A stretch of DNA of 64,000 nt from an uncultured delta proteobacterium (lineage in GTDB: Bacteria > Myxococcota_A > Polyangia > Haliangiales > Haliangiaceae), in contig CAWKDB010000011.1 in the NCBI GenBank assembly GCA_963848295.1, forward strand, positions 512,001 to 576,000. Reading direction: 5' to 3'. The notes under the pieces are model-generated. The model ran no database searches. It had not been told where the DNA came from and saw only the letters and a program-made list of their open reading frames with translations. Shown piece after piece: positions 26,708 through 38,543 of the stretch (its first letter is position 1; each line of letters starts with the position of its first letter). The translations under genes were made by a program, and so were the position numbers.

Positions 26708-28510
26708 CTAACGGATCGAGCGCTCGAGTCCCTTGGCTTGCGCCCGAACGGCGGGATGCGGATCGTGCGCCGCGGCGGCTCTCAGATACGGCACCGCGGC
26801 GCGGCCGATCTTCGTCCGCAAGAACCCCGCAGCCTTCGCTCGGGTCTTCGCGCTGCCGAGCATCGTGATCACGTTGTGGTTGAGCGTCGGGTTACCGCGG
26901 TACGCCCCGTTCTTCGCGATCGCATCGCCGTAGTCATCGAGCGCCACCTGCCACCACAGGTGGTCGAAGTAGAGGTTGCCGAGCAAGAACGGGATGTACG
27001 CGTTCGCCGGCGACTTGCCGCGCAGCGCGCGCAGGCTCGCGAGCGCGACGTCGCGCTGGCCGGCCTTGATCAGCACGACGGCGCTCGCCACACTTGTCGC
27101 GAGCTGGGGCGCGCCCGATCCGGCGTGCTGCTCGACTTCTGCGTTCGTCTTCGGCGCATCCGCGGCTTCGTCTTCCGCCGATCCCGCCGAGCCCTTCGCC
27201 GGATCCGGATCCTCTGCGGTCGTCGGATCCATCTCGATCTCGTCTGCCACCGAGCCCGAGCCCGAGCCCGAGCCCGAGCCCGACTCGGTCGTGCCCGTCG
27301 ATCCCGCGTCTTCCAGCGCCGCCGCAAGCTTCGCGGCATCGCTCGGTGGCTCGACCGCGAGCTTGTCCGCGCCGGCAGCATCGTTGACCGCCGCGATCGG
27401 CGTCCCGCTCGCCGGCTTGTCCGGATCCTTGTGGATCAGGTATTGCGCCATCGCGAGCGTGCCACCGACGAGCACGACGATGCCCGCGATCACCGGCCAG
27501 AACCGCGAGGACTTCGGCGCCGGCACCGCGGTCTTGTCCGAGTCGATGTCGAGCATCGTCGGCGCGACCGCCGCCGACAGCGACGACCGGCGCTTGCTCG
27601 CCGCGATCACCGGCGCCGACGGTGCGCGCTCCGCCGGTTCCGGCTTGCCGTCGATCAACACGTCGAGCGCATCCGCGAGCTCGATCGCGGTCTGATAGCG
27701 ATCGGCGGGTGACTTCGCCATCGCCTTATCGATCACCGCTTGCAGCCCGTCGGGGATCTCGGTGCCCTCGGGCACGCGGTCGACGAGCCGCGGGATCGGA
27801 GCCGCCCGATGCATGCCGAGCAACTGCAACGTCTCCTCGGCGTGAAACGGTCGATCGCCGACGACCATCTCGAACAGCACGACCCCGACCGCGTAGATGT
27901 CGGTGCGCGCGTCGATCGTCCCGCCCGGCACGGTCTGCTCGGGGGCCATGTAGTTCGGCGTACCGACCACCATATTGGTCTGGGTCGCGTCGCGCCCGAC
28001 GTTGCCGCGCAGCCGCGCGAGCCCGAAGTCGAGCAGGCGAACGCGCTCGCCATGCCCGATCTCGTCGCTGATCATCACGTTCGCCGGCTTGATGTCGCGA
28101 TGGACGATGCCCTGATCGTGTGCGTGCGCGAGCCCCGATGCGATCTGACGCGCGATCGCGAGCGCCTGCGCCGCCGGGACCGGACTCGCGTCCATTCGCG
28201 CGCGCAGCGTCGTGCCGGCGACGAAGTCCATGACGAGATAAGGCGCGTTCTCCCACACCCCGAAATCCAGCACCGACACGCAGTTCGGGTGCGCGAGCTT
28301 GCTCATCACGCGGGTCTCGCGCTCGAACCGCGCCTGAAACTCGCTGTCGTTGGCGAACGTCGCGTGCAGGAACTTCACCGCGACGAGCTTGCCGATCGGG
28401 ACGCGCTCGCCCTTGTAGACCGAGCCCATCGAGCCGGAGGCCATCACCTCGACGAGCTTGTAGCGGCCCTCGACGAGGCTGCCGACGCGAGCAGTCGCCT
28501 CGTCCGTCAT
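26708..28510 (-). CDS. Membrane Ser/Thr protein kinase with helical (TPR/HEAT-like) extracytoplasmic domain
   Basis: VAVK, HRDIKPAN, DFG, GTPNYMAPE, DIYAVG; TM FWPVIAGIVVLVGG; helical C-terminus. Confidence 0.95.
   Translation of the reverse strand: MTDEATARVGSLVEGRYKLVEVMASGSMGSVYKGERVPIGKLVAVKFLHATFANDSEFQARFERETRVMSKLAHPNCVSVLDFGVWENAPYLVMDFVAGTTLRARMDASPVPAAQALAIARQIASGLAHAHDQGIVHRDIKPANVMISDEIGHGERVRLLDFGLARLRGNVGRDATQTNMVVGTPNYMAPEQTVPGGTIDARTDIYAVGVVLFEMVVGDRPFHAEETLQLLGMHRAAPIPRLVDRVPEGTEIPDGLQAVIDKAMAKSPADRYQTAIELADALDVLIDGKPEPAERAPSAPVIAASKRRSSLSAAVAPTMLDIDSDKTAVPAPKSSRFWPVIAGIVVLVGGTLAMAQYLIHKDPDKPASGTPIAAVNDAAGADKLAVEPPSDAAKLAAALEDAGSTGTTESGSGSGSGSGSVADEIEMDPTTAEDPDPAKGSAGSAEDEAADAPKTNAEVEQHAGSGAPQLATSVASAVVLIKAGQRDVALASLRALRGKSPANAYIPFLLGNLYFDHLWWQVALDDYGDAIAKNGAYRGNPTLNHNVITMLGSAKTRAKAAGFLRTKIGRAAVPYLRAAAAHDPHPAVRAQAKGLERSIR
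27251..27280. repeat. (CGAGCC)x5 hexamer repeat encoding a Gly-Ser linker
   Basis: Five perfect copies inside the kinase gene. Confidence 0.85.
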
Positions 28511-28545
28511 CGCAACGCGTAGCGTACCACGCGGTCAGCGGCCGA

Positions 28546-28944
28546 TCAGTGAGTCCACTTCTCTTGGCGCGAATGGTCGCCGTCGTCGTACTCGTGCGCG
28601 GTCACGAAGTGGTACGCGACCTCGCGCGCCTTCTCGGATTCGACCACGCACTCGAACAGCCACTCGCCCTCCGCGTCGGCCGGTTCGACCTGCACGTAGG
28701 CGATCTCGGCCGGAAACAGCAGCAGCTCGCCGACGAGATCTTTCGCGCGGCCGAGCTGGACGACCAACGTGTGCTCGTCCTCGGTCTTGAGCCGCCAGTG
28801 GAAATCGTCGTGGTCGAGCAGCACCACCTCGGGAGTTCCGGCGCGAACGATGCAGTTCGCGTGATCCTGCAACCAGGCCCAGAACTTGTCGAAGGTGAGT
28901 GTCGTCGCCACGGCCGCGAGCCGTTTACCCGTCGTCGTTCCCAT
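28546..28944 (-). CDS. Hypothetical cytoplasmic protein, 132 aa
   Basis: Globular acidic composition and typical codon usage; fills the gap between co-oriented genes. Confidence 0.75.
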   Translation of the reverse strand: MGTTTGKRLAAVATTLTFDKFWAWLQDHANCIVRAGTPEVVLLDHDDFHWRLKTEDEHTLVVQLGRAKDLVGELLLFPAEIAYVQVEPADAEGEWLFECVVESEKAREVAYHFVTAHEYDDGDHSRQEKWTH

Positions 28945-38512: not shown

Positions 38513-38528
38513 GGTGACGACCGGTAGT

Positions 38529-38543
38529 GCAAATCGGCGGCCG
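38529..38543 (-). promoter_or_regulatory. Candidate sigma54 (-24/-12) promoter
   Basis: CGGCCGCCGATTTGC = GG-N10-GC with TTGC, 16 nt upstream of the ATG at 38512. Confidence 0.5.

Follow-up and report, generated by a model that had tools for sequence, protein, structure and literature searches.

A Hanks-type Ser/Thr kinase, a lipoprotein with FG-GAP repeats (FG) and a protein that joins tetratricopeptide repeats (TPRs) to PEGA domains (TP) form a real, conserved three-gene unit which is apparently undescribed. The unit occurs as an array within the 64,000-nucleotide stretch of DNA analysed here (the window, G000:C11:512001-576000, where G000 is this 7.8-Mb assembly, 85% complete). The locus is a derived, two-module form of the unit: it holds two FG-TP pairs (FG1-TP1 and FG2-TP2) and one kinase of the unit (kinase A), plus two unrelated neighbours, a small open reading frame (ORF) and a second kinase (kinase B). 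Our literature searches returned no description of the unit, as judged from listings (kinome supplements and subscription papers may bear on this novelty), and did not find "PEGA domain" alongside myxobacteria and kinase, nor alongside Myxococcus.

Co-occurrence of kinase, FG and TP genes

TP loci were collected from 40 of 45 class-search matches, taken as longer regions, together with 20 loci from a phylum search and 76 named loci. Six-frame profiles gave 146 TP matches, 129 of them distinct; 55 were dropped for short flanks, which left 74. These profiles were used for the main tally; ordinary gene calls missed TP in eight loci, ones of low GC content. The FG profile was built from sequence-search matches with neighbours excluded.

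Neighbourhood statistics, the check named by the original prediction, reveal conserved co-occurrence: a same-strand kinase domain lies within 4.2 kb upstream of TP in 70/74 loci, an FG gene lies within 2.5 kb of TP in 66/74, and 64/74 have both. The baseline for a kinase in G000 is 103 of 1867 genes (5.5%). Across all 129 distinct TP loci, 89 had a kinase, 115 had FG and 99 had both. The association also holds for whole genomes: in a sample of 301, the TP family was found in 26 while the FG family turned up in 23, each of them one of these 26, and the three genomes with TP only are those with the weakest TP matches. In the four genomes with a TP that has no adjacent FG, FG was found elsewhere in all four.

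The commonest gene order among 116 TP genes is kinase-FG-TP (56), followed by FG-TP at a contig end (21), kinase-TP-FG (14) and another gene followed by FG-TP (11); rarer arrangements are kinase-TP without FG (3), FG-kinase-TP (2), TP-FG-TP (2) and others (7). FG and TP genes overlap in 65 of 90 FG-TP pairs. TP2 matched 34 of the 201 genomes of the class and 19 of the 24 of the family, while in the genus 55 of 90 genomes gave a match to FG1; that sample includes the unpublished genome G487. The unit spans several families and two classes; its hosts are mostly uncultured myxobacteria, and the named ones are metagenome-assembled genomes.

The array is flanked by rpoC (38674-42906) and rpsL (24049-24420) and lies on the strand of the ribosomal gene cluster. 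In named records, near relatives of its proteins are labelled Kofleriaceae or Haliangiales. As originally described, seven co-oriented ORFs follow one another on the minus strand: FG1, TP1, kinase A, FG2, TP2, the small ORF and kinase B. Each FG stop overlaps its TP start, by 4 bases both times (GTGA and ATGA). The N-termini of the TPs are highly similar (64/100 residues identical in the TPR part, 30-39% elsewhere), and the FG bodies have diverged (17-33% identity) while their Cys-rich heads were kept (32/59 identical). These observations of the original prediction stood; its interpretation of them held in part. The duplicated modules are indeed two paralogous FG-TP copies, but trees make them old paralogues, with no fresh duplication. 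A three-part unit was rightly perceived, but the sequence FG-TP-kinase read from this locus gives way to kinase-FG-TP as the commonest order, and kinase B is likely no part of it. Pfam matches above cut-off were FG-GAP_3 and FG-GAP in FG1 and FG2, PEGA in TP1 and TP2, and Pkinase in both kinases.

Kinase A and the tails of the unit's kinases

Kinase A (33032-34597, minus strand) is a Hanks kinase of 521 residues with a single transmembrane (TM) helix (about residues 357-376), a Pro-rich stalk, a PEGA domain (431-493), a linker and a short C-terminal tail. Catalytic motifs are intact in both kinase A (VAIK, HRD, DFG) and kinase B, each of which has one TM helix. In a tree, 78 of 85 unit kinases fall together with a support of 0.97; none of 60 other G000 kinases lies inside this clade, and kinase B is outside it. 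Kinase A is the only kinase of the clade found in the assembly, where we found 205 Hanks kinases; at 85% completeness, the assembly may be missing a second one of the clade. The catalytic domain of kinase A does not decide between the two module types, and we assign it to module 2, which it heads, because of its position, tail and upstream element.

Unit kinases share a layout of kinase domain, TM helix, stalk of about 42 residues, PEGA domain, linker of about 32 residues and tail, with the lengths taken from the 39 of 89 kinases in which PEGA was detected. The tails are acidic and close at or near P-F. The tail pattern [DEN][PV][FWY] stands near the end of 49/89 unit kinases, a set that includes a few unrelated or frameshifted neighbours, versus 9/204 other G000 kinases; a stricter pattern that was set beforehand was found in 20/89 versus 3/204. 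In kinase A the tail is D-I-E-N-P-F (33041-33058, minus strand), the predicted ligand of the TPR groove described below.

A wider pattern is present in G000. A kinase lies no more than two genes away at 23 of 35 other partner-type genes, compared to a baseline of 720/6515. The kinases adjacent to them have a TM helix in 22/23 cases and the tail pattern in 6/23 (versus 3/180), and 27 of the 35 other partner-type proteins end in F or W. Separately, in L166-L179 (G000 contigs C1, C2, C10 and C11), many secreted TPR proteins, some with PEGA, adjoin TM kinases whose short tails differ, for example NPY, NPF, DPY and Cys-closed ends; this variety is possibly a lock-and-key series.

TP proteins

TP1 (34689-35912, minus strand; 407 residues, GTG start) and TP2 (28996-30198, minus strand; 400 residues) both have A-x-A signal peptides and PEGA domains. 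A model of TP2 made with 148 sequences (predicted local distance difference test, pLDDT, 91.7) shows five helices, two β-sandwiches, two helices of about 40 residues and two final strands. By homology to it, TP1 consists of a TPR domain, two PEGA/Ig-like sandwiches, a long helical hairpin and a C-terminal β-hairpin that ends G-Q-F; TP2 has the same order of TPR, two PEGA domains and helical hairpin and ends G-R-F. Pfam reported no TPR for TP1 or TP2, but both the family profile and the TP2 model gave TPR matches. The best natural sequence matches of the TPR are Hop/STI1 and SGTA (E about 1e-4 to 1e-2), and its fold in TP2 matches BamD with Z 15.1 and a root mean square deviation (rmsd) of 2.2 over 98 residues, values in a range common for helical repeats. 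The hairpin had no named fold match in searches with the full-length fold, for which the VIA list was filled by TPR and the Atlas gave unnamed Myxococcota clusters.

Five TPR residues, F10, F43, S44, Q47 and R50, are 97-99% conserved across the 148 sequences and stand at TPR positions 5, 6, 9 and 12; the capping helix adds R81, conserved at 97%. A study of TPRs describes positions 2, 5, 6, 9, 12 and 13 as binding peptide in Hop and as mostly variable across TPRs (PMC1261162). Fixed aromatic and basic residues at such positions would fit a single, fixed acidic-aromatic ligand.

The last residue is aromatic in 143/148 members of the TP family, with Gly at -3 in 135/148. The hairpin helices are less hydrophobic than the kinase TM helix (1.8 versus 2.5) and are preceded by a net charge of +2. 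Signals for the β-barrel assembly machinery (BAM) and the positive-inside rule serve as guides to membrane placement; by these, the aromatic end, weak hydrophobicity and basic patch would favour the outer membrane.

Two relatives were rejected as evidence for fusion: P0214 (1294 residues), the one long relative of TP, arises where a frameshifted FG runs on into a TP whose signal peptide is still present, and P0227 is an artefact of a similar kind.

FG lipoproteins

FG1 (35909-38512, minus strand; 867 residues) and FG2 (30195-33011, minus strand; 938 residues) belong to one family, in clades "type 1" and "type 2" respectively. Both have a lipobox Cys at residue 14, a Cys-rich head and FG-GAP repeats. 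The residue at +2 is Thr in FG1, and across the family it is Thr, Ser or Ala in 126/131 members and Asp in 0/131. The model of FG1 (136 sequences; pLDDT 93.9, predicted template-modelling score 0.91) shows the head followed by a nested double VCBS/FG-GAP β-propeller, in which an inner propeller (about residues 157-530) interrupts a discontinuous outer one (about 60-156 plus 535-850). There are four DxDxDG loops in FG1 and three in FG2. The inner propeller matches integrin αL (Z 23.3, rmsd 3.9, 325 residues) and, equally well, the bacterial lectins CV39L (Z 23.1, rmsd 3.6, 318 residues) and BP39L (Z 22.4, rmsd 3.6, 318 residues). The integrin-like propeller of the original prediction is therefore present as a fold, but it is one half of a double propeller and no closer to integrin than to lectins.

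For FG/TP pairs at 50-70% TP identity, the FG head is 62% identical and the propeller parts 35-49%, with the first half of the inner propeller the most variable part of FG. This pattern fits a head kept constant for docking and propellers that can be adjusted for binding. Several FG paralogues, two or three in tandem, accompany one TP gene in L070, L140, L141 and L148; in the L140-L150 clade, FG heads are 67-78% identical while bodies fall to about 30-47%. FG is more variable than the TP adaptor, as had been proposed, but overall FG distance is only about 1.5 times TP distance.

Candidate promoters and module history

A σ54-type -24/-12 site (CGGC-N7-TTGC; 38529-38543, minus strand) precedes the FG1 start by 16 bases, in the 161-base gap after rpoC; in relatives it precedes the module's kinase. 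By itself the match is weak: the window contains 84 sites that match with one mismatch, this one included. However, GG-N8-TTGC occurs no more than 45 bases from the start of the kinase in 11/21 FG1-type modules versus 2/52 others (shuffle control for the FG1-type modules: mean 0.45, maximum 3), and because of this conservation we judge the site real and probably functional, in agreement with the promoter candidate first noted at the head of the array. A stricter σ54 pattern was found in 4/73 kinase leaders. In G000 at large, σ54-type motifs peak 10-19 bases before start codons (43/101), which would mean very short leaders, and the assembly has 77 Sigma54_activat matches.

Upstream of kinase A, an element (TTTTAACC ... 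TACAAT; 34609-34654, minus strand) is likely a separate promoter, and similar elements are present in L031, L091 and L092. Elements of the form TAnnnT directly precede the unit kinase in 25/73 loci, the small ORF in 17/45 and kinase B in 17/31, against a background of 2.8%; such elements before separate genes suggest that the array is several transcription units. Also upstream of kinase A, beginning at the TP1 stop, two direct copies of an 11-base sequence (TGAACCGTGAT), separated by 2 bases (34668-34691, minus strand), are possibly a regulator site or a rearrangement scar.

FG1/TP1 and FG2/TP2 fall in separate clades, and the FG2 clade has the identical five members in the FG and TP trees. 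In the 7 two-module loci for which the region upstream is visible, every module is paired with a kinase of its own, while L031 and L092 have one kinase for two FG-TP pairs, in a different order. Module 1 of the window has likely lost its kinase and kept its σ54 site.

A proposed receptor kinase split across the envelope

On balance, we lean towards the unit being a receptor kinase whose three parts are distributed over the envelope. The stalk, PEGA domain and linker of kinase A would span the periplasm, and its D-I-E-N-P-F tail would probably bind the aromatic/basic TPR groove, to judge by the conserved residues on either side. TP is likely placed in the outer membrane by its Gly/Ala-rich helical hairpin and G-x-F end. 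The lipoprotein may plug in by its conserved Cys-rich head and expose its more variable propellers to a surface glycan or protein, steps that we put forward with rather less assurance. Ligand binding would cluster or shift the TP proteins, join the kinase domains and trigger autophosphorylation, as proposed for PpkA. Since module 1 has apparently lost its kinase and kept its σ54 site, kinase A likely serves both FG-TP pairs in this genome. The trio of propeller, adaptor and inner-membrane kinase first suggested as a trans-envelope system for this locus survives as a conserved unit, with kinase A as its kinase and likely without kinase B.

Several observations weigh against the split-receptor model. 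A same-strand FG within 2.5 kb is missing at 8/74 TP loci and an upstream kinase at 4/74. Most loci come from one family and the genomes are related, so the counts are not independent, and some genomes fed both the TP and the FG alignments behind the 301-genome tallies, which overstate independence. Tree distances of FG and TP correlate (r 0.87, 95 pairs), but this is expected for linked genes without any contact. In G019, a genome of the same genus that is 98% complete, neither the FG nor the TP family was found, and the unit is therefore dispensable there. PEGA was detected, with a weak profile, in 39 of the 89 unit kinase ectodomains; 40/89 kinases do not have the main tail pattern and have other ends (DLEF, LEY, TERP, EFP), and two of the three tail patterns were written after the tails had been viewed. 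No output gene, such as one for an FHA protein or an activator, is conserved beside the unit among labelled neighbours, most neighbours being unannotated. Finally, the membrane placement of TP is read from sequence signs, and two hydrophobic helices also suit an inner-membrane protein, as reported for MasA.

That last point leads to the best of the alternatives, to which we give a modest chance: a complex of the inner membrane and periplasm similar to MasABK, in which TP would cross the inner membrane twice and the lipoprotein would respond to the state of the periplasm or peptidoglycan, with nothing exposed outside. In MasABK of Myxococcus xanthus, an interacting kinase, membrane protein and lipoprotein are placed at the inner membrane: MasA (505 residues) has TM helices at 58-77 and 177-195, MasB (656 residues) is described as without known domains and has Asp after its Cys, both are described as inner-membrane proteins, and the periplasmic part of MasA bound MasK and MasB in yeast two-hybrid tests (PMC3546991). 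The two hydrophobic helices of the TP model would suit such an arrangement, as would the listing of PEGA among peptidoglycan-associating domains (PMC7159879). Against this, the basic residues before the first TP helix would then face the periplasm, the hydrophobicity of the helices is weak, and TP ends in G-x-F. The Thr, Ser or Ala at +2 of the lipoproteins, with no Asp among 131, also speaks against it, and the kinase stalk with two PEGA domains seems longer than contact at the inner membrane would require.

Somewhat less probable is that TP is mainly an exporter or surface anchor for FG, itself an adhesin or lectin, and that the kinase merely monitors or regulates assembly. Slam proteins (type XI secretion) combine a TPR domain with a C-terminal multi-stranded β-barrel and are paired with lipoprotein cargo. 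Translational coupling of FG and TP in 65/90 pairs fits such a role, and one TP may serve several FG paralogues with conserved heads; neither module 1 here nor the second modules in L031 and L092 have a kinase of their own. The single-chain TP2 model, though, closes with a pair of 40-residue helices followed by two strands and shows no barrel, and on this ground we rejected TP as a Slam. Moreover, the kinase is a steadier neighbour of TP than FG is (70/74 versus 66/74), and it stays beside TP at loci where FG is unlinked.

We consider it improbable that the FGs are polymorphic kin- or contact-recognition receptors, with the kinase reporting self or non-self contact. The mark of a receptor of this type, as for TraA (PMC6372800), would be high allelic polymorphism within a species. 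The Cys-rich head of FG is of a myxobacterial kind, the first half of its inner propeller is its most variable part, and FG paralogue sets differ among genomes. Yet where TP identity is at least 89%, FG is 81-96% identical in 8/10 pairs (close genomes, with no same-species alleles in the sample), and the two exceptions involve L141, from the clade in which one TP is accompanied by several FG paralogues. This moderate variability, with FG distance 1.5 times TP distance overall, does not support strong kin-type polymorphism.

That the genes merely share an rpoC-rpsL insertion site, with no joint function, is largely refuted and scarcely credible: rpoC or rpsL is within view in 46/107 loci, and the small ORF, kinase B and OmpA pair gather there too, but the trio occurs together in three orders, also away from the site, and co-occurs when unlinked, and the unit kinases are one clade with a common tail.

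Comparison with known systems

By analogy, the unit may work like TagQ/TagR-PpkA and MasABK, with other parts. In the TagQ/TagR/TagST-PpkA system of Pseudomonas and RtkS-PpkA of Serratia, a lipoprotein of the outer membrane and a partner in the periplasm switch on a Ser/Thr kinase of the inner membrane by way of its periplasmic domain (PMC6082577, PMC13584744). A TP2 sandwich has a weak fold match (E 3.8e-3) to a 77-residue chain of the RtkS-PpkA complex (PDB 9k1u). Unlike in the PpkA systems, the partner here is a TPR-PEGA protein with a membrane anchor of its own, and contact is predicted to occur via a short C-terminal peptide. The locus showed neither type VI secretion genes nor an ABC transporter nor an FHA target; the neighbours there are rpoC, the small ORF, kinase B, the OmpA pair and rpsL.

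MasABK, a myxobacterial three-gene operon of kinase, membrane protein and lipoprotein, is in outline the nearest tested myxobacterial case. Its description sets it apart from the unit: its operon is beside mglBA and its lipoprotein has Asp at +2, whereas the unit here is at rpoC-rpsL with Thr/Ser at +2, and the FG lipoproteins are double propellers of 867-938 residues whereas MasB is without known domains. In G000, recR directly precedes mglBA; 20 regions around recR showed no mas-like operon between that gene and mglBA, and an mglA query matched 0/10 further genomes.

FG resembles integrin α, CV39L and BP39L in its propeller fold and DxDxDG loops (PMC8023676), but where integrin has legs and a TM helix it has a Cys-rich head, a lipid anchor and a further propeller, which is discontinuous. 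Its assignment as an integrin α subunit was rejected because the model shows a second propeller, no long helix and an N-terminal lipobox; FG is made of VCBS propellers. No vWA domain was matched among nine window proteins scanned with Pfam. TP shares with Hop/STI1, SGTA, CHIP and BamD a five-helix TPR fold and conserved residues at known peptide-binding positions. Unlike the Hop-type TPRs, the TPR of TP is periplasmic and is followed by PEGA domains and a membrane hairpin, and its predicted ligand is a kinase tail that closes with P-F and a few further residues, in place of an EEVD end.

The unit kinases are similar to the PASTA kinases PknB and Stk1 in being single-pass Hanks kinases and would likewise read an outside signal. 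In kinase A, no PASTA repeats were found in the Pfam scan, and NF033483 scored 266.7 bits (cut-off 450; match over residues 26-376). TonB-dependent cell-surface signalling, like the relay proposed here, spans the envelope, but the unit is without a TonB-dependent barrel or anti-sigma factor. In DdvA, myxobacteria have a TPR sensor in the periplasm, though one that works via proteolysis and a sigma factor (PMC11506125).

Split-receptor signalling by the unit, if true, would be a further relay from the outer to the inner membrane, one that needs no barrel. Hanks kinases are very numerous in myxobacteria, and the activators of most are an open question. The unit suggests how some of them could receive signals from outside the cell. 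It is a clear exception to the poor synteny of myxobacterial kinomes (PMC2887360), being conserved across several families and two classes. The tail-groove contact reduces to a six-residue tail and a 100-residue TPR domain, and, given the partner-type signs at 23/35 other G000 genes, such binding, if true, would explain a sizeable share of the kinases. A more far-reaching version, which is tentative and which we would not expect to hold in full, is a swappable trio of surface double propeller, outer-membrane helical-hairpin protein and tail-gripping periplasmic TPR, in which tail-groove pairs are an address code that wires dozens of sensor-less kinases to outer-membrane partners of their own, with no TonB barrel and no proteolysis.

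Neighbouring genes

Kinase B and the small ORF are likely separate neighbours outside the unit. Kinase B (26708-28510, minus strand) is a TM kinase of 600 residues with a TPR/HEAT-like ectodomain and does not have the unit kinases' tail. The small ORF (28546-28944, minus strand) encodes a conserved protein of 132 residues for which no Pfam or NCBIfam family was found and the Atlas result was weak (recognition 2053). It is present in 6/6 other sampled genomes of the order and in 9/301 overall, often directly before kinase B or rpsL, and has its own conserved GGCTATAAG-like leader with an extended -10-like element. In G019, where no FG or TP was found, the small ORF, kinase B and rpsL occur together.

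Several ribosomal-cluster genes at 16000-21300 (minus strand) are short or split in the gene calls (tuf appears as 314 + 65 residues), a sign that the assembly may contain indel errors there; the genes of the array are intact.

Between kinase B and rpsL, but on the other strand, an OmpA-domain protein and a Cys-rich lipoprotein are encoded at 24551-26688 (plus strand) with a 4-base overlap. Their NCBIfam matches are weak: TraB at 97.7 bits (cut-off 700) and MXAN_6577-like Cys-rich at 30.9 (cut-off 100). Both genes of the pair were also matched in L090, L119, L125, L129 and L142.

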